A stretch of 64,000 nt of DNA from Gammaproteobacteria bacterium. GTDB lineage: Bacteria > Actinomycetota > Acidimicrobiia > Spongiisociales > UBA4744. The notes below the pieces were generated by a model. It did no database searches. It was not told the DNA's origin and saw only the letters and a program-made list of their open reading frames with translations. Both the position numbers and the translations under genes were made by a program. Positions within the stretch are counted from its first letter, which is position 1, and every line of letters starts with the position of its first letter. Where the stretch lies: contig JAACED010000012.1 in NCBI GenBank assembly GCA_011682695.1, positions 43,518 to 107,517 of the forward strand, given 5' to 3'. This document shows, piece after piece, positions 3,370 through 49,733 of the stretch.

Positions 3370-4081
3370 TCCGACGCCGGCGGACCCGTCTGAGCAGTGC
3401 TGGTCGCATGAGGGCCGCCACGGTAACCCCGAAGAGGAATCCGCCAACGTGTGCCTGCCACGCGACGCCCGTCGCTTCGACGAAGAACTGGCCGAGGAAC
3501 CAGAAAACCAGAAAGATCGAAGCTGGGAGCGCGATCGGAAGAAAGAAGAGGATCGGGAATACCGACACAACTCGCGCTCTGGGATAAAGAACGAGGTAGG
3601 CACCCATCACACCTGCGATTGCGCCAGAGGCGCCGATCAAAGGGGTAATCGCTCTCGGATTGGAGACGACGAATGTCGCTGTCGCGACAACTCCCGAGGC
3701 CAGATAGAAGAGCGGATATCCGAGCTTGCCGAAGGCATCTTCGACGTTATTGCCGAAAATCCACAGGACCCAGAGGTTGCCGATCAGATGCAAAAAGTTC
3801 GCATGCAGGAACATCGACACGAAGACGCTTCCCCACAGGTTCTTGTCTGGATAGAGGGGTGGAGGCTGAGGAGCAGCCGAACAGCCTGTGAGATCGCCCT
3901 GGTCGAGGGGCGAACCCGAAGAGAGTTCGCAAGGGATCGCGGCGTGCTGCACGTCGAACTCCAGAGCAGCCCGCGCACCGTGGGGCTGAAGAAAGAAGAA
4001 CACGAACGCACCCGCTGCAATGATCAGCCATGTGACAACAGGGCGGGTGATGCCTGGATTCGCGTCCCGGATGGGAATCAA
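3353..4081 (-). CDS. Rhomboid family intramembrane serine protease
   Basis: GASGAIAG (catalytic Ser) and AHVGGFLFG (catalytic His) motifs; multiple TM helices. Start set to TTG at 4081, preceded by GGAG with a 7-nt spacer. The track ORF extends to 4237 through a Ser-rich low-complexity stretch that overlaps a plus-strand small ORF. The start is uncertain (GTG at 4141 is also possible). Confidence 0.65.
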   Translation of the reverse strand: MIPIRDANPGITRPVVTWLIIAAGAFVFFFLQPHGARAALEFDVQHAAIPCELSSGSPLDQGDLTGCSAAPQPPPLYPDKNLWGSVFVSMFLHANFLHLIGNLWVLWIFGNNVEDAFGKLGYPLFYLASGVVATATFVVSNPRAITPLIGASGAIAGVMGAYLVLYPRARVVSVFPILFFLPIALPASIFLVFWFLGQFFVEATGVAWQAHVGGFLFGVTVAALMRPALLRRVRRRRIIALR

Positions 4082-4256: not shown

Positions 4257-5032
4257 CCAGACGCAGGCTCGACATCGAGCTCGTTCGCAGAGGGATGGCT
4301 GCAAGTCGCAGCGAAGCCCAGGCTGCCATCGAATCGGGAACGGTGACGGTTGGGGGAATGCCAACCCCAAAGCCGGCAACCCTGGTGGACGACGCAACGT
4401 CCTTGCGTCTCGTTGGGCCGTCGTCACGATTCGTCTCACGAGGCGGTGAGAAGCTCGCCGGCGCTCTCGACACGTTCGATGTGGCCGTTGCCGGAAGACA
4501 CTGCCTCGATGCCGGTGCATCGACAGGCGGCTTCAGCGACTGCCTGCTCCAGCACGGAGCATCCCCGGTCGTCGCCTTGGACGTCGGGTACGGACAGTTG
4601 GCGTGGGGGATCCGAAACGACCCGCGGGTGCGGGTCGTTGAAAGAACAAACCTGCGTTACGTGGACCCTGCCGACATTCATGCTCCCTTCGAGGTGATCG
4701 TGGCCGACCTGTCATTCATCTCCCTCTGCACGGTCGGTGCAGCGCTGGCCGCTTGTAGTTTCGAGGACACCGACTTCGTCCTCTTGGTGAAACCGCAGTT
4801 CGAAGCCGGAAAGGGCAAGGTTGGCAAGGGCGGGATCGTGCGCGACCCTAAGGTGCATAGGGAAGTGCTCGACAAGGTGATCGGCTGTCTCGAACAGTCG
4901 GGCATCGGTGCAAAGCAGGTGATTCGCTCTCCCATCCGGGGAGCCGGCGGGAACAGGGAGTTCTTCCTCTGGGCGAGACAGGGACGTGTCACGGTGGATG
5001 ACGAGATGATTGCAAAGGTGGTGCACGCGTGA
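4253..5032 (+). CDS. tlyA: TlyA family rRNA 2'-O-methyltransferase (hemolysin A homologue)
   Basis: Strong similarity to TlyA (S4-like RRRLDIELVRRG N-terminus; GASTGGF SAM motif; VADLSFISL; LVKPQFE). Homology extends 14 codons upstream of the first ATG (4295) with no ATG/GTG/TTG in frame back to the stop at 4127. A CTG at 4253 sits 6 nt after a perfect GGAGGA and overlaps the upstream TGA. Conservative alternative: 4295..5032. Confidence 0.8.
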   Translation: MTRRRLDIELVRRGMAASRSEAQAAIESGTVTVGGMPTPKPATLVDDATSLRLVGPSSRFVSRGGEKLAGALDTFDVAVAGRHCLDAGASTGGFSDCLLQHGASPVVALDVGYGQLAWGIRNDPRVRVVERTNLRYVDPADIHAPFEVIVADLSFISLCTVGAALAACSFEDTDFVLLVKPQFEAGKGKVGKGGIVRDPKVHREVLDKVIGCLEQSGIGAKQVIRSPIRGAGGNREFFLWARQGRVTVDDEMIAKVVHA

Positions 5033-5832
5033 GGCTGGCAATGGTCGTACACGAGAGGCGTCCCCAGGCTGGAACCGTGGCAGAGCGCTTCCGGGAAGGC
5101 TGCCTGGAACGTGGCATCGAGGTCGTAGACCAGGAAGCCGAGAACGTTGACGCGGTCATCGCGATCGGCGGCGACGGGACCGTTCTGCGAGCTGCCAGGA
5201 TCGCGCTGGAGTCAGGGGCCGCGCTCCTCGGCGTCAACGTTGGACGGAAAGGCTTTCTGGCGGATGTGGAACCGGCCCGACTGCCTGAAGCACTGGACGT
5301 GTTGGCATCGGGGATATGGCGCGAATCGGCTCGCATGACGATCCAGGCCCGCATGAACGGAGGAGAAACGGCCGTCGGCATCAACGATGTCGTGGTCGAA
5401 AAGACCGGAGGGCACAGCATTATCTCGATCGAGGTTCGGGTTGATGGAGAACGGTTCATCGACTATCACGCGGACGGCCTCGTGTTCGCGACCCCGACCG
5501 GTTCTACCGCCTACAACCTCTCTGCCGGTGGACCACTTATGGACCCCGAAGTCGAGGCGTTGATCATCTCGCCCGTCGCTCCCCACTCGTTGTTCTCCAA
5601 GTCGGTCATTCTGCATCCAGATGCCGAGATCCAATGCACCGTGGTCGCCGACAGACCTGCCGGCGTGAGTGTGGATGGACGAGATCTCGGAACCGCCCAT
5701 AGCGGTGACAAGATCCTCATCGAACGTGGATCCCAGCAGGTTCGCTTCATCGATGTTTCGGGCACTTCGTTTCCTCGGCGCGTGAAGGACAAGTTCCATC
5801 TCAATGAGGACCGAAGGCTCGTGGGAGGCTGA
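5029..5832 (+). CDS. nadK: NAD+ kinase
   Basis: GGDGT motif (AIGGDGTVLRAA), NE/D short motif, C-terminal ATP-NAD kinase fold motifs DGLVFATPTGSTAYNLSAGGP. GTG at 5029 overlaps the tlyA stop (GTGA); an ATG at 5041 is an alternative. Confidence 0.85.
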   Translation: MRLAMVVHERRPQAGTVAERFREGCLERGIEVVDQEAENVDAVIAIGGDGTVLRAARIALESGAALLGVNVGRKGFLADVEPARLPEALDVLASGIWRESARMTIQARMNGGETAVGINDVVVEKTGGHSIISIEVRVDGERFIDYHADGLVFATPTGSTAYNLSAGGPLMDPEVEALIISPVAPHSLFSKSVILHPDAEIQCTVVADRPAGVSVDGRDLGTAHSGDKILIERGSQQVRFIDVSGTSFPRRVKDKFHLNEDRRLVGG

Positions 5833-14448: not shown

Positions 14449-15161
14449 ACGAGCGCCTCCAGAAACTCATCGCTCACTCAGGGTTCACCTCGCGCCGTGG
14501 TGCGGAGGAACTCATCAAACAAGGGAGAGTTTCGGTCGACGGTGCTCCCGCTCATCTGGGACAGAAGATCGACCCTGAGCACGCATCCGTCATGATCGAT
14601 GGAGTTCCACTCCCCGTGGCACCAGGCCTCGTCTACTACCTGCTGAACAAGCCGCCCGGAGTCGTCAGTACGGTACGCGACCCGCAGGGCCGCCGCACCG
14701 TTGTCGATATCGTCGGCAGCGAAACGAGGTTGTATCCGGTGGGACGGCTGGATGTGGAATCCGAGGGGCTACTCATCCTCACCAACGATGGAGATCTGGC
14801 TCACCTGCTGATGCACCCGAAGTTCGAGGTTGCCAAGACGTACATGGTGCTCGTCGATGCGAACCCGACCGCCCGTCAACTCCGCATCCTTCGAGAAGGT
14901 GTCGATCTGGAGGACGGGTCTGCGGCCGCGCTCTCGGCGCGGGTGATCGATCGTTCGAAGGGACAAGCTCTCATCGAGATCGTGATGGGGGAAGGACGCA
15001 AGCGTGAGGTGCGTCGGATGTGCGCCGATGTCGGCCTGCCCGTCTTGAGGCTCATTCGGACAGCCATAGGGCCGCTGCGAGATCGTACGCTTCGACCCGG
15101 GTCGTTCCGGCCATTGACCCTCGATGAAGTGCGAAGCCTCTACGCGGCAGCAGCCCCATGA
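14445..15161 (+). CDS. rluB: RsuA/RluB family rRNA pseudouridine synthase
   Basis: N-terminal S4 domain (ERLQKLIAHSGFTSRRGAEELIKQGRVSVDG), catalytic GRLDVESEGLLILTNDG. GTG overlaps the scpB stop (GTGA). Confidence 0.85.
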   Translation: MNERLQKLIAHSGFTSRRGAEELIKQGRVSVDGAPAHLGQKIDPEHASVMIDGVPLPVAPGLVYYLLNKPPGVVSTVRDPQGRRTVVDIVGSETRLYPVGRLDVESEGLLILTNDGDLAHLLMHPKFEVAKTYMVLVDANPTARQLRILREGVDLEDGSAAALSARVIDRSKGQALIEIVMGEGRKREVRRMCADVGLPVLRLIRTAIGPLRDRTLRPGSFRPLTLDEVRSLYAAAAP

Positions 15162-16441
15162 GACGCCGTATCACACCGACCACAGCCCGGGGAGAGATGA
15201 CCGTGCCGGGGTCTCGAAGCATCACGAACCGGGCCCTGGTGGCGGCCGCTCTGGCCGACGGAGTGAGTTCCCTTCGCGGGGTCCCAGTCTGCGACGACAC
15301 GCAAGCCATGATCGACGGTTTGCGCAGTCTCGGTGTGAGCATCCGCCGGCATGACGACCAGCTGTTGGTCACCGGCAGGGGCGGGAGAATCGGCAGGCCC
15401 GGAGCGGTCGTCAATGCGTTGGCTTCCGGCACGACCGCACGATTCCTGACGGCGGTCGCCTGTCTCGGTGAGCAGAAGGCCGTCGTGAACGGTGTGAAGC
15501 GGCTGCAGGAACGGCCTCTCGGGCCTCTCGTCGATGCGCTTCGCAAGATGGGCGCCCAGATTGAAGGTGAACACCTGCCCCTCCTTGTCGGAGGAGGCAG
15601 CCTCGTGGCCGGCAGCGTCGAGGTCGATGCCTCGGCTTCGAGCCAGTTCGTCTCGGCACTGGCCTTGATCGGACCCGTGATCGAGGGCGGTCTATCGATT
15701 CGGTGGGGTGAACTCGTGTCGAGACCTTTCGTCGAGATGACCGTGGAGGTCATGGCGACCTTCGGCGTGACCGTCGAGCTGTCCGATCGTGGTCTCACCG
15801 TCTCGGACCGAGCCACCTATGGGGCGGCAGAGATGTCGATTCCTCCCGACGCGGCGTCTGCCGTATACCCCGCGCTGGCCGCGGCCATCACCAGGGGCAG
15901 AGTCGTGATCAGGGGATTGCAGCGAGCCCCTTCCCAGGCAGACTTGCGAGTGTTCGACATGTTCCAGGAGATGGGTTGCCGTGTCGAGTGGAGCAGGACG
16001 GGTGTCCGCGTAGACGGTCCCGAACGCCTACGCGCGGTGGACGCCGACATGGGTAGTGCACCGGACGGAGCTCTCGCCGTGGCGATCGCAGCAGCGTTTG
16101 CCGACGGAACCTCGAGGATTCGCGGTCTGGATACGCTCGCAGCCAAGGAGAGCGACCGTACTGCCGGACTCGCCCAAGGGCTGACGGCGATGGGGGCCAC
16201 GGTCGAGGTCGAGGCCGCCGGTCTCTCCATCACTGCCGGCGATCCTCGTGAAGCGACCATCGATCCACATGCAGATCATCGCATGGCCATGGTGTTCTCT
16301 GTCGCCGGGCTCGGCAGGAAGGGGATCCGCGTTGAGGACAGCGACTGTGTGGGCAAGACGTGGCCCGGCTTCTATGAGGACATGAATCGGATCTGTGGTT
16401 CGAGCTGGGCACGCCCAGACCCCCGGGAATCTGCCGAGTGA
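15158..16441 (+). CDS. aroA: 3-phosphoshikimate 1-carboxyvinyltransferase (EPSP synthase)
   Basis: VPGSRSITNRALVAAALADG, LGEQKAVVNG, DASASSQFVSAL, ADHRMAMV motifs. ATG at 15158 overlaps the rluB stop (ATGA). An internal ATG at 15197 (MTVPGS...) is an alternative start. Confidence 0.9.
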   Translation: MRRRITPTTARGEMTVPGSRSITNRALVAAALADGVSSLRGVPVCDDTQAMIDGLRSLGVSIRRHDDQLLVTGRGGRIGRPGAVVNALASGTTARFLTAVACLGEQKAVVNGVKRLQERPLGPLVDALRKMGAQIEGEHLPLLVGGGSLVAGSVEVDASASSQFVSALALIGPVIEGGLSIRWGELVSRPFVEMTVEVMATFGVTVELSDRGLTVSDRATYGAAEMSIPPDAASAVYPALAAAITRGRVVIRGLQRAPSQADLRVFDMFQEMGCRVEWSRTGVRVDGPERLRAVDADMGSAPDGALAVAIAAAFADGTSRIRGLDTLAAKESDRTAGLAQGLTAMGATVEVEAAGLSITAGDPREATIDPHADHRMAMVFSVAGLGRKGIRVEDSDCVGKTWPGFYEDMNRICGSSWARPDPRESAE

Positions 16442-16461
16442 TACCGGTACGTCGCTCGCCG

Positions 16462-16672
16462 GCGACACCTCCCAAGACCCCCTCCGTCCTCGGCAGGACT
16501 TTCCAAGACCCCCTCCGTCCTCGGCCAAAGCCCCGAGGACACCTCCCCCAACGCTCGCCAAGACCCCCTCCGCCCTCGGCCAAAGCCCCGAGGACACCTC
16601 CCCCAACGCTCGCCAAGACCCCCTCCGTCCTCGGCCAAAGCCCCGAGGACACCTCCCCCAACGTCGGCCTTG
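16462..16672. repeat. 55-bp tandem repeat array (about 3 full copies plus a degenerate leading copy) in the aroA-cmk intergenic region
   Basis: Unit CCAAGACCCCCTCCG(T/C)CCTCGGC + CAAAGCCCCGAGGACACCTCCCCCAACGCTCG recurs at about 16503, 16558 and 16613 (period 55). A partial copy lies at about 16472. The array is C-rich on the plus strand. No coherent coding frame (55 is not a multiple of 3). Confidence 0.85.
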
Positions 16673-16678
16673 CGGCCT

Positions 16679-16720
16679 CCTGGGGGAGGAAACGGCCCTC
16701 GCTGGGGGAGGAAACGGCCG
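16679..16720. repeat. Two copies of a 22-bp direct repeat (CTGGGGGAGGAAACGGCC...) immediately after the 55-bp array
   Basis: TGGGGGAGGAAACGGCC at about 16681 and again at about 16703. Confidence 0.6.
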
Positions 16721-16800
16721 GGAGGGGGCCGGCGCCAGACAGAGGGGGAGTGCGGTGCCACCACCGACGCCGCGAGTCAACGCACTAGGGTTGCTGCGCC

Positions 16801-17433
16801 ATGGAGCACCTCGTGATAGCGATCGACGGGCCGGGAGGATCCGGTAAGACCACGGTGAGCCGCGCTCTCGCCAAGGCTCTCGGAGTGGCACATCTGGATA
16901 CCGGTGCGTTCTATCGAGCGGTTACTCTCGCGGCACTTCGGGCGGGACTCTCCGCTCCATCGGACCTGGCCGCTCTCGCGGAGCGCATCGATCTGCGGTA
17001 CGAGGACGGGCACATGTATCTCGATGGGGAAGACGTCTGCGAGGCAATCCGTTCAGAAGCCGTCAATGCGTTCGTGTCGGTGGTCAGTGCAGAGCCGGCC
17101 GTGCGTAGGGCAATGGTGGAACGCCAACGGCGCTGGGTGGAGGAGCATGGTAACCGGGCTGTCGTCGAGGGACGGGATATCGGGACCGTAGTGTTCCCCC
17201 ACGCGGAACTGAAGATCTTCCTCGTTGCACGCCCAGAGATCAGAGCCTCACGGCGGGCCCATGAACTCGACTCCCCCGGAGTAGAGAACGTGAAACAGGA
17301 CCTCGCGCGGCGCGACCACCTGGACTCTTCTCGCGCCGTGTCACCGCTGAGCCCGGCAGAAGACGCAGTCACGCTCGACACCTCGGACGTGACCGTGCCC
17401 GACGTCGTCGAGCATATCCTGACTCTGCTCTGA
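16801..17433 (+). CDS. cmk: Cytidylate kinase
   Basis: MEHLVIAIDGPGGSGKTTVSRALA... P-loop; full-length Cmk. Confidence 0.9.
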   Translation: MEHLVIAIDGPGGSGKTTVSRALAKALGVAHLDTGAFYRAVTLAALRAGLSAPSDLAALAERIDLRYEDGHMYLDGEDVCEAIRSEAVNAFVSVVSAEPAVRRAMVERQRRWVEEHGNRAVVEGRDIGTVVFPHAELKIFLVARPEIRASRRAHELDSPGVENVKQDLARRDHLDSSRAVSPLSPAEDAVTLDTSDVTVPDVVEHILTLL

Positions 17434-17447
17434 CGAAAGGTCGGGCT

Positions 17448-18494
17448 TCAGGAGTTCAGCGCGACCAGCGCCTCCGTCGCCGTCCATGTTCGATCCTTCT
17501 GGAGTGGTCCTGTCTCGCCAGGGCTGCGGACACAGAACCCTCCTTCCACCGCGAATTGGAGAGCGGTGAGGAAGCCACGCAACTGACGCGGAAGTGGAAA
17601 GTACTCGTCTTCGTCGGTGACACGCGCCACTTGATATCCGTTGCGCGGCGCGATTCTGTCGATCACTTCGCGCACGAGGTGATCTGGCGCCGAAGCGCCC
17701 GCCGTGACTCCAACGACGCCGACCCCCTCCAACCAGCGATCCTCGATCTGCCCCGCCGAGTCCACCCTGTGCGCCGGCGTCCCGGCTCGTCGGGCGACTC
17801 TGACGAGCGCCCTGGTATTCGACGATGTTTCAGATCCGACGACCAGGATCAGGTCTGTGCGCTTGGCGAGATCCTTGACTGCCTCCTGACGATTCGTCGT
17901 CGCATAGCAGAGGTCGCTGCGCCGGGCGGTGCGGAGCCCGGCGAAACGAGCCGATGCGGCCTCCAGCACGGCTTCCCACTCGTGCATTCCGAGGGTGGTT
18001 TGTGCGAGCAGAGCGACACGGGACTCATCGGCCGGCGCAAAGGCATCGAGCCCTTCTTCCGGTTCGACGAGCGTGATCGCGTCTGGTGCCTCGGCGACGG
18101 TACCGATGGCTTCATCGTGTCCTTCGTGACCCACATAGATGATGTCGAACCCTCGTTCGGCCATGCGCCTGACCTCATGGTGCACCTTGGTCACCAGCGG
18201 ACATACGGCGTCGATCACAACACCCGCCCACGCCTGAGCCGCCTGCACGACTTCCGGGGCTGATCCGTGTGCGGACAGCATGAGCGGAGCACCATGAGGG
18301 ACTTCGGCGATATCGTCGACGAAGACCACACCGACGTCTTCGAACGCTCTGACAACCCACTCATTGTGCACGATTTCGTGGTAGCAGTAGACGGGGGGAT
18401 CAAAGACGCGGATCATCCACATGAGCGCTTTGATGGCCATCTCCACACCGGCGCAGAAACCGCGTGGCTCGGCGAGGAGTACCTGATCGACCAT
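17448..18494 (-). CDS. ispH: 4-hydroxy-3-methylbut-2-enyl diphosphate reductase
   Basis: MVDQVLLAEPRGFCAGVEMAI..., three conserved Cys (CAG, AVCPLV, DLCYATTNRQ), SETSSNT. Start at the internal ATG (codon 14 of the track ORF). Confidence 0.85.
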   Translation of the reverse strand: MVDQVLLAEPRGFCAGVEMAIKALMWMIRVFDPPVYCYHEIVHNEWVVRAFEDVGVVFVDDIAEVPHGAPLMLSAHGSAPEVVQAAQAWAGVVIDAVCPLVTKVHHEVRRMAERGFDIIYVGHEGHDEAIGTVAEAPDAITLVEPEEGLDAFAPADESRVALLAQTTLGMHEWEAVLEAASARFAGLRTARRSDLCYATTNRQEAVKDLAKRTDLILVVGSETSSNTRALVRVARRAGTPAHRVDSAGQIEDRWLEGVGVVGVTAGASAPDHLVREVIDRIAPRNGYQVARVTDEDEYFPLPRQLRGFLTALQFAVEGGFCVRSPGETGPLQKDRTWTATEALVALNS

Positions 18495-18571
18495 GGACCG
18501 ATGGTAACGATGTGCCTGAAGAACCGGCGCCAAGCCTATCCTTGCCGGACCAAGGAGGGCCAGTGAGTCGT

Positions 18572-21975: not shown

Positions 21976-22050
21976 CGGGCTGTGGCGCAGCTTGGTTAGC
22001 GCGCTTGACTGGGGGTCAAGAGGTCGCCGGTTCAAATCCGGCCAGCCCGA
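21976..22050 (+). tRNA. tRNA-Pro (anticodon GGG)
   Basis: Cloverleaf read by eye: acceptor CGGGCTG/CAGCCCG, D-arm GCGCAGCTTGGTtAGCGC, anticodon stem CTTGA/TCAAG with loop CTGGGGG (anticodon GGG), T-arm GCCGG-TTCAAAT-CCGGC, discriminator A. CCA is not encoded. Coordinates +/-1-2. Confidence 0.75.
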
Positions 22051-23533: not shown

Positions 23534-24514
23534 ATGACCAAGACCATCGGCGAACCCAGGGGGCAGCAGCCTCGCCGGCCGATCGTCGATCGTCCCCGAC
23601 GCCGTGGCGATCGCGTCTTCCGGCGCGCCACACTGGCGGCGGCGGCCGTCGTGCTGCTCCTCCTCGCCATCATGATCGTGTCGACCACCATCGCATCGCT
23701 CCCCGTATGGCGATCCCAAGGCATCGTCGGGTTCCTCCTCGGGATGCGCTGGGTGCCGAACAAGGCCATTTTCGGAGCCTTCCCCTTCATATACGGCACG
23801 GTCGTCACCGCACTCATCGGCGTCCTCGTCGGTGTCCCCATCAGCGTGCTCATCGCCCTCTACATCTCGGAGGTCGCCGGCCCGAAGGTCGCAGGCCCGG
23901 TGTCGTACCTCATCGACCTCCTCGCCGCCATCCCTTCGGTCGTCTACGCGCTCTGGGGCATCTTCGTCTTCGTCCCCTACGTGGTGAAGCCGATCTCCGA
24001 TCTTCTCGCCCGATACCTGGGCTGGACCGGCATCTTCGAGGGTCCCGTCTTCGGCCTCTCCTACCTCTCGACCGGACTCGTCCTCTCGATCATGATCGTG
24101 CCCATCATCAGCGCCATCTGCCGAGAAGTCTTCGCCACCGTCCCTGCGGGAGAGAAGGAGGCGGCCCTGGCACTCGGAGCAACGCGCTGGGAGATGATCC
24201 GCCTCGCGATCCTGCCGCGTTCCCGCCCGGGCATCGTCGGTGCGGTCATGCTGGGTCTTGGCAGGGCCCTCGGCGAGACCATTGCCGCCGCGCTGCTCAT
24301 CGGATCTCAGGTGGGCATCCACCTCTCTGTCGTCCAACCCGGCTACACGATGGCAGCGGTCATCGCCAACCAGTTCCAGGAGGCCGACGCGGCGCAGATC
24401 AGCGCTCTCCTCGGCATCGGCGTCGTCCTCTTCTTCATCACCATCGTCGTGAACGTGCTGGCGCGCATCGTCGTGGCGCGCACCGGAGGCACCCTCGTGT
24501 CGGCGGATCTATGA
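23534..24514 (+). CDS. pstC: Phosphate ABC transporter permease PstC
   Basis: Polytopic permease with EAA-like loop (EAALALGATRWEMI). ATG after GGAGGAG. Confidence 0.9.
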   Translation: MTKTIGEPRGQQPRRPIVDRPRRRGDRVFRRATLAAAAVVLLLLAIMIVSTTIASLPVWRSQGIVGFLLGMRWVPNKAIFGAFPFIYGTVVTALIGVLVGVPISVLIALYISEVAGPKVAGPVSYLIDLLAAIPSVVYALWGIFVFVPYVVKPISDLLARYLGWTGIFEGPVFGLSYLSTGLVLSIMIVPIISAICREVFATVPAGEKEAALALGATRWEMIRLAILPRSRPGIVGAVMLGLGRALGETIAAALLIGSQVGIHLSVVQPGYTMAAVIANQFQEADAAQISALLGIGVVLFFITIVVNVLARIVVARTGGTLVSADL

Positions 24515-30244: not shown

Positions 30245-32263
30245 GTGAGAAACTCACGGAGACTCTGGACGTGGATCGCGGTCGTTGCGCTGCTTGCGCT
30301 CGTCGCGACAGCCTGCGGCCAGGGAACCACCACAGAGTCCACCAGCACCACGGCGGCTGCGACGACGACGACAGCCGGCACGGCTGCGACGACGACCACG
30401 GCAGCGGCGCCGGGTGCGACGGGCTTTACGTACAAACTCGGTGTTTTCGAGGACCTGACGACTGACAACTTCTGGGCCTATATGGACCCGGAGGCTTCGG
30501 TCTGGAATGCATATGTCCTCGGAAACCAGCATCCAGGGTTGTTCACCCTGGCGGCGCCGTCCTGGCAGCTCGTGCCGGACCTGGCGACCGCACAACCGAA
30601 CAACGCTGAGCAGGTTGGTGACGACTGGGTCGTGACGCAGGAACTGCGCCAGGGCTACATGTGGTCTGACGGAGTGCCGGTAACCGCGAACGACGTGGCC
30701 TTCACGTTCAACACCGCAGGTCCCGACTTCAAGTTGGGCGGCAACTGGGCCGGTTCACTTTCGCTGTATTCCCCGGATGACCCGGCGACCACGGACGTGG
30801 ACGAGTCCGCCGACGGCATCAAGACTGTCGAGGCAATCAACGACTACACCGTTCAGATCACGTTCTCGAGCGAGCCAGGCCTCGCCGTGTGGCAAATGGG
30901 TATCGGCCTGATGCCGATTCTGCCGCAGCACTTCTGGCAGTCGGTCGTGGATGAGGCTGCAGCATCGGACGATCCGTCGACGACGCTGTACGCCGCTTCT
31001 GGTGAGGGCGAGCCCTCCGCAGGAGCGTTCATCTACGACAGCCGGGAGCCCGGCGCGTTCGCCAAGAACGTCGCCAACCCTGACGCCTACTACGCCGGTA
31101 CGCAGTACACGTTCTACAGCGACGGCACCTTCCAGCAGACCAATGCTGAGAGGGGCTTCGATGAGATGTACGACGGCTCCGGCACAGGCGACATCACCCT
31201 TCAGTACAGCGAGGGGCCGTTCGCCAAGGACGCCATCTATTCGATCTACTCCGATCAGAACGCGGCCATCCTGGCCCTCAAGAGCGGTGAGATCGACTTC
31301 ATGTTGAACCCAATCGGACTCAACACCGGGTTGAAGAACGAAGTTCTGAACTCACCCGAGTTGAGCCTGATTGCGAACCCGTCCAACGGGTTCCGCTACC
31401 TGGCGTTCAACTTGCGCAAGGCGCCAATGAAATACAAGGGCTTCCGCCAGGCGATCGGCTGTCTGACGCAGAAAGAGTTCCTCCAGACCCTGCTGGGCGG
31501 AGCGATCATTCCTGCGTACAGCCTCGTTCCGGAAGGTAACACCGCGTGGGCGAACCCCAACGTGGAGCAGATCTGCAAGGGTCTCGGCGAGCAAGAGCGC
31601 TTCAATCAGGCCATCCAGTACCTCAAGGATGCCGGTTTCACCTGGGATGTCGAACCCGCATGGGACGAGGGCACCGCAGGCAACCTGCTTCCTGGTACCG
31701 GTACCGGGCTCACGGATCCTGACGGCAACGCCGTTCCGGAACTCGAGTTGCTGGCTCCCGGACCCGGCTACGACCCGCTGCGGTCGACGGCCTCGATCTG
31801 GATCGCACAGTGGGCCGGTTGGTTGGGTATTCCCGTCAAGGCGAATGCCACCGGCTTCAACGTGATCGTCAACAAGGTCTTCGCCGAAGGTGACGCCGCC
31901 AAGGATTGGGACATGTACATCCTCGGTTGGGGTCTCGGGAACCCTGCGCTCCCGGACTTCCACGAAGCGTTCTTCGCCTCGTGGCAGGACTCGGCGAACG
32001 GTGGCTTCAACACCCCCGGCTACAACGACCCGGACTTCGACGCACTCGCGAAGGAGTTCCTGGCAGCGACGGATATCCCGTCTGCCAAGGACGCGGTGCA
32101 GAAGATGGATGCCAAGATCGTTCAGGATCTTCCGTATCTGGTCCTCTTCACCACGCCGGTGCTCGAGGCCTACAACAGCAAGCTGATCTTCCCCTTCACC
32201 GACGTGTTGGACGGATTGGCGAACCTGAACGGTATGCCGGCAGCCGTGCAGATGAGCGACTGA
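30245..32263 (+). CDS. ABC transporter substrate-binding lipoprotein, family 5 (oligopeptide/dipeptide/nickel type)
   Basis: GTG at 30245, 7 nt after GGAGGG, gives MRNSRRLWTWIAVVALLALVATAC (lipobox). Thr/Ala-rich linker, then an SBP_bac_5 fold. The track ORF starts 42 nt earlier, without an SD. Confidence 0.8.
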   Translation: MRNSRRLWTWIAVVALLALVATACGQGTTTESTSTTAAATTTTAGTAATTTTAAAPGATGFTYKLGVFEDLTTDNFWAYMDPEASVWNAYVLGNQHPGLFTLAAPSWQLVPDLATAQPNNAEQVGDDWVVTQELRQGYMWSDGVPVTANDVAFTFNTAGPDFKLGGNWAGSLSLYSPDDPATTDVDESADGIKTVEAINDYTVQITFSSEPGLAVWQMGIGLMPILPQHFWQSVVDEAAASDDPSTTLYAASGEGEPSAGAFIYDSREPGAFAKNVANPDAYYAGTQYTFYSDGTFQQTNAERGFDEMYDGSGTGDITLQYSEGPFAKDAIYSIYSDQNAAILALKSGEIDFMLNPIGLNTGLKNEVLNSPELSLIANPSNGFRYLAFNLRKAPMKYKGFRQAIGCLTQKEFLQTLLGGAIIPAYSLVPEGNTAWANPNVEQICKGLGEQERFNQAIQYLKDAGFTWDVEPAWDEGTAGNLLPGTGTGLTDPDGNAVPELELLAPGPGYDPLRSTASIWIAQWAGWLGIPVKANATGFNVIVNKVFAEGDAAKDWDMYILGWGLGNPALPDFHEAFFASWQDSANGGFNTPGYNDPDFDALAKEFLAATDIPSAKDAVQKMDAKIVQDLPYLVLFTTPVLEAYNSKLIFPFTDVLDGLANLNGMPAAVQMSD

Positions 32264-45734: not shown

Positions 45735-47217
45735 ACCCGCAGGACGCGCATCATCCTCGCCGCTCCTGGGCGGCGCCACCGAGCCGACACTCGCAGAATT
45801 CTCCAGTCCCGGAAGGAAGGCGTGGTCTCTCCCGCCCCTCGACGTACCGAAGTCGCCGCTGGATCTCGTGGAGGGACGCGATGGTCTCGTCGATCTCCCG
45901 GAGGTGTCCGAGCACGACCTGGTGATGCATGTCACCCGCCTGGCACACCGCAACTTCGCCGTCGACCTCGGTGCATACCCCCTCGGCTCCTGCACCATGA
46001 AGTACAACCCGAAGATCGCCGATTGGGTTGCCGATCTCCCAGAGTTTGGGACTCTGCATCCGGACACTCCGCCCTACGCAGCGCAAGGGACGATGGAGGT
46101 GCTGGTGGAAGCCGAGCGTATCCTCTGCGAGCTCACCGGCATGTTTCGTGCGACCTTCCAGCCTGCCGCCGGAGCCGCAGGAGAACTCACGGGCATGATG
46201 ATCACTCGTGCGTACCACGCTGCCAACGGGAATCCGCGCAGTGTCATGCTGGTCCCTGACTCCGCACACGGTACGAACCCGGCGTCGGCCGCGCTGAGCG
46301 GCTACGAGGTCAAAGAAGTGCCATCGAATGAGCACGGAATGGTCGACCTCGACACACTCCGTGCAGTCCTGAACGACGAGGTTGCCGGCTTGATGCTGAC
46401 CAACCCGAACACGCTCGGGCTGTTTGAAGTGGAGATCCTGGATATCGCCGATGCCGTGCATGAGGTGGGAGGCCTCCTCTACTACGACGGAGCCAACCTG
46501 AATGCGATCCTCGGAGTGTCCAGACCGGGTGACATGGGGTTCGACATCGTCCACTCCAATCTGCACAAGACCTTCGGGACTCCCCATGGGGGTGGTGGAC
46601 CGGGATCCGGCCCCGTGGCGGTTTCGAGGGAACTTGCTCCTTTCCTGCCAGGACCGCTGCCGGTACGCGACGACGAAGGCCTCCTCCGATGGGGAATGCC
46701 TGCGCGCTCGATCGGCAGGGTGCATGGTCGGCACGGGAATTTCGGCGTGGTGCTGCGCGCCGTCGCCTACATGCGTGCGCTGGGAGGAGCAGGCCTCCGG
46801 CGAGTCGCAGAGCGGTCCGTGCTGAACGCCCGGTATCTCGCCTACCTCCTGAGCGACCGTTTCGAGATTCCGTACCCGGCGCCGTGTATGCACGAGTTCG
46901 TTGCCTCCGCCCATCGGATCAAAACCGAAACGGGCGTACACACCATGGACATCGTCAAGGCCCTCCTCGATGAGGGATTCCATGCTCCAACGATGTACTT
47001 CCCGCTGATCGTTCACGAGGCGCTCATGTTCGAGCCGACCGAGACGCAGTCGAGGGAGACTTTGGAGGCATTGGCTGCCGCGATGAACGCGATCGGCGAG
47101 AAGGCGTACACGGATCCCACAGCCGTCAAGGACGCTCCCATTCTGACGCCTGTCCATCGGCCCGACGACGCCCTTGCCGCCCGTCATCTGAATGTCAGCT
47201 GGTTCATGGAGGAGTAG
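45727..47217 (+). CDS. gcvPB: Glycine dehydrogenase (decarboxylating) subunit 2
   Basis: PLP-binding half (…SNLHKTFGTPHGGGGPG…). Overlaps gcvPA by 8 nt. Confidence 0.9.
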   Translation: MAEPAGRASSSPLLGGATEPTLAEFSSPGRKAWSLPPLDVPKSPLDLVEGRDGLVDLPEVSEHDLVMHVTRLAHRNFAVDLGAYPLGSCTMKYNPKIADWVADLPEFGTLHPDTPPYAAQGTMEVLVEAERILCELTGMFRATFQPAAGAAGELTGMMITRAYHAANGNPRSVMLVPDSAHGTNPASAALSGYEVKEVPSNEHGMVDLDTLRAVLNDEVAGLMLTNPNTLGLFEVEILDIADAVHEVGGLLYYDGANLNAILGVSRPGDMGFDIVHSNLHKTFGTPHGGGGPGSGPVAVSRELAPFLPGPLPVRDDEGLLRWGMPARSIGRVHGRHGNFGVVLRAVAYMRALGGAGLRRVAERSVLNARYLAYLLSDRFEIPYPAPCMHEFVASAHRIKTETGVHTMDIVKALLDEGFHAPTMYFPLIVHEALMFEPTETQSRETLEALAAAMNAIGEKAYTDPTAVKDAPILTPVHRPDDALAARHLNVSWFMEE

Positions 47218-49070: not shown

Positions 49071-49531
49071 CGCCTCTCCAGGAACGGCTCTCCGTAGAGA
49101 TGAACCTCCATTGTCTCACCCGGGCTGAACCCGAGATGCTCGACAAAGCCTTCTCCCGATTGGTTTCCGAGGATCAGATCCACGGTGACCGGAAAGGAAG
49201 GTGCCAGGGATCGAATCTTCTCGAGGAGCGCCGTTGCCGCACCGTGCCGGCGATACTCCGGGTGCGTGCACATCGCCGCCACGACGATTGTGCTTCCTTC
49301 GACATAGACGTCGGTGAACGCCGCGGGGCGGCCATCGATCTCGATCAGGAAGATCGGATGGTCCTCCCACCGTTGCTCCAACGCCGAAGGCGAATACGCG
49401 GCCGCGAGCCATCGTTCGATCGTGTCTGCATCCAGAAGATCTCGGTATGTCATACGCCACGACACATTCGCGATCTGCGCCACGGACGCCAGGTCCTGCT
49501 CGTCTGCCCTCCAGATCCTCACGACCTCCAA
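49034..49531 (-). CDS. GNAT family N-acetyltransferase
   Basis: Acetyltransferase core (…HPEYRRHGAATALLEKI…). TTG start after GGAG. The 3' end overlaps the add start by 37 nt. Confidence 0.55.
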   Translation of the reverse strand: MEVVRIWRADEQDLASVAQIANVSWRMTYRDLLDADTIERWLAAAYSPSALEQRWEDHPIFLIEIDGRPAAFTDVYVEGSTIVVAAMCTHPEYRRHGAATALLEKIRSLAPSFPVTVDLILGNQSGEGFVEHLGFSPGETMEVHLYGEPFLERRWWMESALMRSS

Positions 49532-49733
49532 ACTACTAGCTCCACAGGCAACGTTTGCGCCATCTCTCCGCCGGAATTCCGCTCCCGGTGTTCTCTTCCC
49601 GTGTCCTCACGGGCGACGCCCCCGACCGGCCATCGAAACCACGAACACTGTCTGCCAACACAGTCGTACCCGTGAACTTCCCGGTGTTGCCTGCTCTCAT
49701 GCGACACAAGTCGGATCGTGCAAACATGAGGCC

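Follow-up and report, generated by a model that had tools for sequence, protein, structure and literature searches.

Repetitive extragenic palindromic (REP) sequences, the hairpin-forming REP doublets known as REPINs and the bacterial interspersed mosaic elements (BIMEs) are short GC-rich imperfect palindromes of intergenic DNA, found preferentially behind genes (PMC3337134, PMC3733652, PMC1525189). They occur as inverted pairs that form long hairpins and in tandem or mosaic clusters with a variable hairpin between, and they are targets for insertion sequences (IS) of the IS110 family (PMC1525189). In REPINs the spacer sequence varies while a hairpin is retained, and REPINs form tandem arrays (PMC3337134); a GTAG or CGTC tag defines most catalogued REPs, and the CGTC-tagged REPs lie mostly downstream of genes, form head-to-head dimers, occur in Planctomycetes and have no dedicated transposase (PMC3733652). 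MIRUs (mycobacterial interspersed repetitive units) form another interspersed family, of 40-100-nt tandem units between co-directional actinobacterial genes, with a copy number that varies by lineage. Here we analyze the 359-nt spacer between aroA and cmk in a 64,000-nt stretch of contig JAACED010000012.1 (assembly GCA_011682695.1), hereafter the window, to which all unlabelled positions refer. The repeat cluster in this spacer very probably consists of modules of a dispersed REP/BIME-like palindromic repeat. The explanation as a whole, in which the cluster is REP/BIME-like, was amplified locally and has a role at the 3' end of aroA, is likely.

The spacer repeat as a two-hairpin element

The initial annotation had described the gap of about 360 bp as filled by a 55-bp tandem array of about 3.5 copies followed by a 22-bp doublet, and this description stands. 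In Tandem Repeats Finder the 55-nt period spans 16503-16663, with 2.9 copies, a score of 315 and 98% matches, and a second array, of period 22, covers 16676-16719 with 2.0 copies. A repeat search returns in-register copies at 16472-16526, 16503-16557, 16558-16612 (98%) and 16613-16667 (95%), the first of which matches only over its first 22 nt, leaving a partial unit of 31 nt. The inventory of the spacer is three full 55-nt units (16503-16667), one 31-nt partial unit, one degenerate unit and one 22-nt doublet containing an exact 18-nt pair set 22 nt apart (Table 1); the tandem array begins 30 nt past the aroA stop codon. Within the array, a 22-nt sub-motif occurs four times and a 24-nt sub-motif three times, and neither is found elsewhere in the 64 kb or in any of 100 shuffles.

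Two features had gone unremarked: an 8-bp hairpin within each unit, and the complementarity of the C-rich blocks of the units to G-rich blocks downstream. Folded as plus-strand RNA, a single unit gives one 8-bp hairpin (HP1; -14.8 kcal/mol, z=-3.4) with both C-rich flanks, CCCCCUCC and CACCUCCCCC, unpaired. The degenerate unit lacks the 5' C-block and reads, as DNA, GTCGC..GCGAC followed by ACACCTCCC. Downstream there are four G-blocks, UGGGGGAGG twice (in the 22-nt units), GGGAGGGGG and AGAGGGGGAG, and they complement the C-blocks exactly or nearly so (inverted pairs I1-I14 of the repeat search). One of these pairs, I9 (9 nt, 100% complementary), supplies the arms of a second hairpin, HP2, and unit 4 together with the first 22-nt unit folds into two adjacent hairpins (-40.6 kcal/mol, z=-4.0), the arrangement seen throughout the family described below. 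The two G-blocks beyond the doublet contribute pairs I4-I6 and I11-I14. The minimum-energy structure of the complete spacer is a branched ladder (plus strand, -167 kcal/mol, z=-3.4) in which these two blocks pair with the 5' units; the sequence GGGGAGTRCGG within the two blocks is conserved at the orthologous loci L003 and L005.

By its sequence, the 55-nt unit is C-block, hairpin and C-block, the 5' module of a two-hairpin element, and the 22-nt unit is a duplicate of the 3' arm of HP2. What had been taken for a self-contained minisatellite is one half of a palindromic element, with the doublet as its other half. The array is best read as a putative local amplification of the family's 5' module together with a duplicated 3' arm (CUGGGGGAGGAAAC), which may have grown by slippage or unequal recombination, and the "variable number tandem repeat" (VNTR) label is explained by such amplification.

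Table 1. Positions of the repeat modules, the flanking genes and the motif ahead of cmk. R1 is the covariance model described in the next section.
Feature	Position	Strand	Description
aroA, 3-phosphoshikimate 1-carboxyvinyltransferase	15158..16441	+	NCBIfam TIGR01356, E=1.7e-118; stop codon TGA 16439-16441
Degenerate unit 0	16451..16473	+	Hairpin GUCGCU/CGCC/GGCGAC, then C-block ACACCUCCC; fold -8.7 kcal/mol; repeat family D2
Partial unit 1, 31 nt	16472..16502	+	CCAAGA-CCCCCUCC, then shortened hairpin GUCC/UCGGCA/GGAC; R1 match 16474-16501, E=1.2e-3
Full unit 2, 55 nt	16503..16557	+	CCAAGA-CCCCCUCC, HP1 GUCCUCGG/CCAAAGCC/CCGAGGAC (16517-16540), ACA-CCUCCCCC-AACGCUCG; R1 E=1.5e-6
Full unit 3	16558..16612	+	Variant C at 16573 gives a C.A mismatch in HP1; R1 E=6.4e-5
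Full unit 4	16613..16667	+	3' C-block CCUCCCCCA (16652-16660) doubles as HP2's 5' arm; T at 16628 (C in a second assembly); R1 match 16615-16685, E=1.2e-8
HP2 (second hairpin)	16652..16689	+	CCUCCCCCA pairs with UGGGGGAGG, enclosing GGCC/UUGC/GGCC (16666-16677)
22-nt doublet	16676..16719	+	3' arm of HP2 in duplicate: CUGGGGGAGGAAACGGCC at 16680-16697 and 16702-16719
Two extra G-blocks	16720..16755	+	GGGAGGGGG (16720-16728) and AGAGGGGGAG-UGCGG (16741-16755); complementary to the CCCCCUCC blocks of the units
CACTAGGGTTGC motif	16783..16794	+	Contains the TANNNT -10-like hexamer TAGGGT (16786-16791); belongs to cmk, not to the repeat
cmk, (d)CMP kinase	16801..17433	+	NCBIfam TIGR00017, E=6.5e-63

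A dispersed family and its closest described relatives

The initial annotation had proposed a search for further copies of the 55-bp unit. None is present in the window or in about 10 kb of additional flank, but on other contigs the unit proves to belong to an interspersed family. We scanned metagenome contigs with the pattern AAGACCCCCTCCG-N10-30-CACCTCCC, that is, two C-blocks with any 10-30 nt between them, and obtained at least 120 loci; several of the matches listed lie together on single large contigs (at least six on one contig of 1.5 Mb). A GGGGAGG-type G-arm, which is no part of the pattern, lies within 60 nt in 103 of the 121 unique matches listed (85%) versus 4.5% of control windows, and the HP1 segment folds with at least 4 bp in 70 of the 121 versus 9% of shuffled sequences. 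Among the matches listed, the segment between the C-blocks remains a hairpin although the copies, those of a single contig included, differ in its sequence, and CACCUCCC extends to CCUCCCCC, after which come a loop or small hairpin and GGGGGAGG. The family element reads AAGA-CCCCCUCC, the variable hairpin HP1, (A)CA-CCUCCCCC (core CACCUCCCCC), a loop and GGGGGAGG, with the last two blocks pairing as HP2.

In an alignment of 63 foreign copies, 84.9% of cells are paired, and the covariation score is 0.263 against 0.091 after shuffling (none of 500 shuffles reaches it, and slid-register controls do not exceed 0.078). Changes on both sides are seen in six of the seven HP1 pairs and in the apical pair of HP2. 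From these foreign copies alone, with no window sequence, we trained the covariance model R1, whose E-values are rough. It recognizes the partial unit and the three full units of the window (Table 1) and nothing else there at significance, as well as the orthologous units of L002 (1.9e-9), L003 (1.5e-4) and L005 (5.8e-4); the family loci hold 85 R1 copies in 426 kb. A weak R1 match at 46550-46613 on the minus strand lies in a long open reading frame (ORF), lacks the motifs and was set aside as chance.

One subfamily (L036, L079, L107, L108, L110 and L128) ends in ...CACCUCCCCCAACGUCGCUCCGCUCCUGGGGGAGGAAAC, the same as window positions 16650-16693, with the arm sometimes duplicated. The ...CCUGGGGGAGGAAAC end, likewise duplicated, occurs in the Acidimicrobiia-type loci L079, L107, L108 and L110. 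At L079 the host Ffh is 84-97% identical to proteins of which several are named Acidimicrobiia by the National Center for Biotechnology Information (NCBI), and at L012 the host mutase is about 90% identical to proteins that NCBI names Phycisphaerales (Planctomycetota). The C- and G-blocks are identical in these two phyla (Actinomycetota and Planctomycetota) while HP1 varies within a single genome. Family loci occur in further uncultured bacteria too, and their GC content runs from 0.43 to 0.73. On one 1.5-Mb Phycisphaerales contig, which carries L012, L034, L037 and L071, the HP1 sequences are entirely different and the flanking blocks identical.

Many copies are paired head to head or tail to tail, and such inverted pairs fold as long hairpins (-88 to -234 kcal/mol). 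Tandem arrays also occur elsewhere, at L110 (33 nt x3.0 and 30 nt x2.2), at L049 (60 nt x3.9) and at L107, as three mirrored doublets. The L107 cluster (3594-3823) is one long palindrome right behind typA with its duplications mirrored on both arms (29, 27 and 35 nt, each twice; -234 kcal/mol), which suggests hairpin-templated or symmetric expansion. By crude ORF calls, the genes flanking family elements converge in 17 cases, run in the same direction in 19 and diverge in 5, with the stop codon of a neighbor 12-130 nt away. Acidimicrobiia-type clusters lie directly behind a thiolase gene (L079), typA (L107) and aroA (the window).

The family shares the main properties of REPs. Its members are short, imperfect, multi-copy extragenic palindromes (the copy numbers and covariation given above); they form inverted doublets and tandem or mosaic clusters (the long hairpins, the arrays of L049, L107 and L110, and the C-block/G-block pairing of the window); they lie downstream of genes, as far as the crude ORF calls tell; and one copy, in L002, carries an IS110-family insertion in a conserved block. 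Unlike REPs, REPINs and BIMEs, the family combines two hairpins with conserved single-stranded C-blocks and has no unpaired GTAG or CGTC tag, no REP-associated tyrosine transposase (RAYT) or other transposase is seen beside it, and a single locus is found in 74 kb of the host genome. CGTC-tagged REPs come close: many family copies have ...CCGUC at the foot of HP1, and both kinds lie mostly behind genes, form head-to-head dimers, occur in Planctomycetes and lack a dedicated transposase; however, the G, U and C of the motif are base-paired here rather than forming an unpaired tag. Moreover, CGTC-tagged REPs have 8-9 bp stems and A/T at the first two positions (PMC3733652), whereas the stems of this family run from 5 to 9 bp and vary in sequence, its loops are 3-8 nt or more and the CCA tail is absent. 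Because the tag is lacking and no RAYT was found, we file it as a new REP-like family, assigned to no named one.

Other searches returned no described counterpart. At gathering score, Rfam has nothing at the locus, and at E<=10 it yields four sub-threshold chance matches only; eight family loci gave no match either. Viral contigs of IMG/VR contain three matches, with no sign of a phage vector, and a literature search with element sequence strings led only to unrelated eukaryotic matches and to no description of the family. The exact 24-nt hairpin GYCCTCGGCCAAAGCCCCGAGGAC has no match in 185,579 species genomes, which makes this hairpin sequence private to the aroA-cmk locus. In the same genomes, CCCCCTCCGYCCTCGGCCANNNCC gave two single matches, in a Planctomycetota metagenome-assembled genome (MAG) and an Opitutia MAG; both are coding-like and lack the rest of the element, and we regard them as chance. 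REP-like families are poorly charted outside Proteobacteria. This one is well defined and structurally conserved, occurs in at least two phyla and is plentiful in metagenomes. Its covariance model can serve for masking and annotation, and it offers natural target sites for an IS110-family (bridge-RNA) element.

The same locus in related lineages

AroA of the window has only three close relatives among 5.8 billion proteins, at 76-79% identity, and the next are at 58-60%. The three relatives carry the element at the same place. L005-L007 (AroA 79%) have one unit and a degenerate 22-nt doublet, L003/L004 (AroA 76%) have two diverged units, and L002 (AroA 79%) has at least one unit with the same flanks, a different hairpin (GCCGC/GCGGC) and then an IS110-family element. 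With about 3.5 units in the window, copy number at this locus differs between lineages, in a comparison at species level. In L008 and L009 (AroA 58-60%), aroA and cmk are likewise split, and the spacers are short, unrelated and free of the repeat. When aligned, the four spacers (window, L002, L003 and L005) share one framework, and since the element occupies the same locus in three related lineages, it would predate the split of the four, the window having presumably gained units afterward. Between unit 4 and unit b of L003, 46 of 51 positions are identical (90%), four of the five differences falling in the loop, compared with 57-63% identity at four-fold degenerate sites of aroA (59% against L003).

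The number of copies in the window was read from short-read assemblies. In a second assembly of the organism the spacer is again 359 nt long, and one base in 3621 nt differs, at 16628 inside the array (T in the window, C in the second assembly). The corresponding hairpin position is the one at which the units differ from each other (16573). A third assembly (Logan) breaks off at 16532, also inside the array. The difference and the break reflect either population heterogeneity or repeat mis-assembly. Given local amplification of a repeat module, the copy number here says little by itself, and short-read assemblies of the array are unreliable.

In L002, the IS110-family element spans about 4358-5652 (transposase domains PF01548 and PF02371), with junctions near L002 positions 4357 and 5653. 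The spacer runs up to the left boundary as ...CACCTCCC and resumes after the right one as CAACGTCGG... (at length, CAACGTCGGCC...CCTGGGGGAGG). The junctions, at CACCTCCC/CCAACG, place the insertion inside the family-conserved C-block of the orthologous spacer. The repeat was probably the programmed (bridge-RNA) target of this element, in keeping with the use of REPs as targets by the IS110 family (PMC1525189).

Although NCBI labels the source organism "Gammaproteobacteria bacterium", the relatives of its AroA are Actinobacteria/Acidimicrobiia MAGs, and the label looks wrong. The flank upstream of the window (L138, 1-7560) carries pafB/pafC (WYL)-tatA-tatC-helY, an actinobacterial arrangement.

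The aroA 3' end, competing explanations and surroundings

What the cluster might do between aroA and cmk can be judged from its composition and position. The highest C/G ratio of the 64 kb lies in the array (43 C versus 12 G in 78 nt), and no run with C/G at or above 2 is longer than 16437-16685. In the predicted fold, unpaired C-rich, G-poor tracts of about 33 nt alternate with stable hairpins, and by composition the array matches a Rho utilization (rut) site, about 70-80 nt or more of C-rich, G-poor, mostly unpaired RNA past a stop codon. The lambda tR1 rut (rutA-boxB-rutB) similarly has unpaired C-rich, G-poor tracts split by a stable hairpin downstream of a stop codon. The likeness is one of composition and layout, and in many family copies, unlike tR1, the G-rich strand is the sense strand. 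At the far end of the spacer, the CACTAGGGTTGC motif lies 9-10 nt ahead of the cmk ATG and is conserved in L003, L005 and L009; its counterpart in the repeat-free L008, CACTATCGTTGC, keeps TANNNT. The motif would fit a -10 element giving a near-leaderless cmk mRNA. A sigma-70 scan found no promoter ahead of cmk.

The C-rich tracts, the hairpins and the cmk motif together suggest a 3'-end element that would end or pause aroA transcription, probably through Rho, and/or protect the 3' end. Local hairpins and long-range pairing between C- and G-blocks would form from 30 nt past the aroA stop codon, in single-stranded DNA or in the 3' untranslated region (UTR) of the aroA RNA; this REP/BIME-like structure would pause, terminate or protect the aroA transcript and insulate cmk, with Rho-dependent termination at the rut-like tracts as the favored mechanism; and cmk would start from its own promoter, with TAGGGT as the -10-like element. 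We put forward such a terminator or insulator role tentatively, as a possibility that we rate as less likely than not. If it holds, the locus would show how a fused or tightly linked aroA-cmk pair becomes transcriptionally uncoupled.

Several observations weigh against the explanation we prefer, in its REP-like identity or in its 3'-end role. The unpaired tag of REPs is wanting; GTAG does not occur, and the CGUC frequent at the foot of HP1 has its G, U and C paired. REP families are normally lineage-specific, whereas the blocks of this one are identical in two phyla. All-versus-all clustering of 2578 ORFs from the 120 loci listed found no protein family recurring beside the elements, in a comparison that was not directed at RAYTs. 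In about 74 kb from the organism itself (the window with L136 and L138) a single element locus was found, and dispersal within the host genome is at most putative. No intrinsic-terminator-like or U-tract site was found at the locus. L003 lacks the GGGGGAGG arms, so the long-range pairing is not conserved. The minus strand of the spacer folds about as well as the plus strand (z=-3.2 versus -3.4), which does not favor a strand-specific RNA. Finally, the orientation of the element relative to genes is mixed across family loci. The neighboring gene is on the opposite strand in many of them (53:26), and among non-Watson-Crick cells on the C-rich strand A.C outnumbers G.U (42 versus 19), a weak signal confounded by misaligned copies with a short HP2; together, these two counts suggest that the G-rich strand may often be the transcribed one, the opposite of the window.

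The main rival, which we consider unlikely, holds that the cluster is a selfish or neutral passenger, a relic of a mobile or recombinogenic palindrome that has no role for aroA or cmk and drifts in length by slippage. Much of the variation is as a passenger would have it. Copy number and content change freely (1, 2 and 3.5 units, the G-arms lost in L003, an IS tolerated in L002), both strands of the spacer fold equally well, the element is missing from the relatives with 58-60% AroA identity, and the family typically shows rearrangements, both tandem and inverted. Less easily accommodated are the 90% identity of the unit core to L003, set against 59% at four-fold sites, the HP1 pairing kept through changes on both sides, and the enrichment of elements at gene 3' ends. 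Both the identity of the unit core and the covariation of HP1 could, however, come about without selection, by hairpin-templated repair and by gene conversion from other copies. The family is in this respect a test case for whether repeats are conserved through selection, gene conversion or horizontal spread.

A strand-specific regulatory RNA is improbable. Here the aroA 3' UTR would be processed to small RNAs or a sponge with anti-Shine-Dalgarno (anti-SD)-like CCUCC motifs, in the manner of CcsR/"cuckoo" or 6C RNAs, or HP2 would mimic an SD:anti-SD helix. The 3' end of 16S rRNA has CACCUCC as its anti-SD core, and the SD core is GGAGG. The plus-strand unit is a stable hairpin between unpaired C-rich flanks, and with eight C-blocks to four G-blocks in the window some C-blocks would stay free. 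The identity of the blocks across phyla, with a varying HP1, is also easier to understand with a universal partner such as the ribosome. Like this array, CcsR and 6C RNAs set repeated C-rich anti-SD-like motifs beside stable hairpins, and CcsR copies are tandem and 3'-UTR-derived. In contrast, the C-motifs of the window lie between the hairpins and not in their loops, most family copies have a G-block partner in cis for each C-block, no Rfam match appears even at E<=10, and the orientation to neighboring genes is mixed.

The initial annotation had likened the array to MIRUs and suggested that its G-rich strand forms G-quadruplexes or i-motifs; as a full account, a locus-specific MIRU-type VNTR that tunes read-through through such structures is quite improbable. 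The likeness is real in that a 55-nt unit in 2.9 to about 3.5 tandem copies lies between co-directional genes and differs in number between lineages. In addition, a GTG at 16438 overlaps the aroA stop codon TGA and opens a frame that runs to a TAG at 16786, 12 nt ahead of the cmk start and within the CACTAGGGTTGC motif, reminiscent of the small ORFs that overlap or abut the genes flanking MIRUs. However, this frame stays open in the window and in L003 but is interrupted in L005, the host is no mycobacterium but an Acidimicrobiia-like MAG, and the unit is half of a palindrome with a downstream partner arm in a dispersed two-hairpin family that extends to other phyla; the array is set apart from MIRUs on these grounds, without an alignment to MIRU sequences. 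As to quadruplexes, each unit does have the predicted minus-strand G-runs (GGGGG, GGGG and GGGGG, three of at least 4). Even so, neither strand contains a canonical motif of four runs of at least 3 with loops of 1-7 nt; the loops are typically 10-17 nt, allowing loops up to 12 nt gives one minus-strand site only, and C-runs complementary to the G-runs lie on the same strand, with hairpins in competition.

Very improbable, in our judgment, is a broader RNA-level reading in which the family is not selfish DNA but a cross-phylum structured RNA module made from universal translation-initiation sequences. The hairpin with (A)CACCUCC would mimic helix 45 and the anti-SD tail of 16S rRNA, and an SD:anti-SD helix would come ready-made in HP2. 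Ribosomes, ribosome-associated factors or SD-containing mRNAs would be the targets of the copies behind genes, which would serve as a decoy, a sponge or a stand-by site, and the aroA 3' UTR would contain a multivalent version in its tandem array. A universal partner would explain identical blocks in Acidimicrobiia and Phycisphaerales together with free variation of the hairpin between them.

That the array is coding (a Pro/Arg-rich linker or peptide, or the remnant of an AroA-Cmk fusion) or an assembly artefact is scarcely credible and was rejected on frame and assembly agreement, as quadruplexes were on loop length: the three plus frames are nearly stop-free and one assembly breaks in the array while two differ at 16628, but aroA and cmk are in different frames, the 55-nt period puts successive units in three frames, the orthologous spacers of 359, 215 and 214 nt leave remainders of 2, 2 and 1 on division by 3, and two independent assemblies agree on the same 359 nt, with homologous units in relatives from other samples. 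The non-coding assignment of the initial annotation is upheld. Many AroA relatives at 45-58% identity are indeed AroA-Cmk fusions (PF00275+PF02224; P0007-P0013 and others), but at about 630-680 aa, versus 637 aa for AroA (427) plus Cmk (210), they would have little or no linker, to judge from lengths rather than a junction alignment. In the clade of the window, aroA and cmk are separate and the gap is colonized by the repeat.

In the surrounding region, scpA, scpB and rluB lie upstream of aroA, and ispH and der downstream of cmk. cmk (plus strand) and ispH/lytB (minus strand, 17448-18533) are convergent across a 14-nt gap with no terminator-like hairpin between them (window 17433-17448), and transcription of ispH would pass antisense through cmk toward the repeat cluster. 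The last codons of aroA (16409-16424, GCACGCCCAGACCCCC) are 88% like the unit junction GCTCGCCAAGACCCCC (repeat family D3), a likeness that could be accidental or mark an ancient unit reaching into the end of the gene. Elsewhere in the window, low-scoring tandem repeats (30 nt x2.4; 12 nt x3.6) and 78-nt stretches, two strongly G-skewed and one C-skewed, are found at 30349-30421, 23813-23855, 50349, 7276 and 49483-49611, and a tRNA gene at 21976-22050 (66 bits) is the only gathering-score Rfam match of the whole window.

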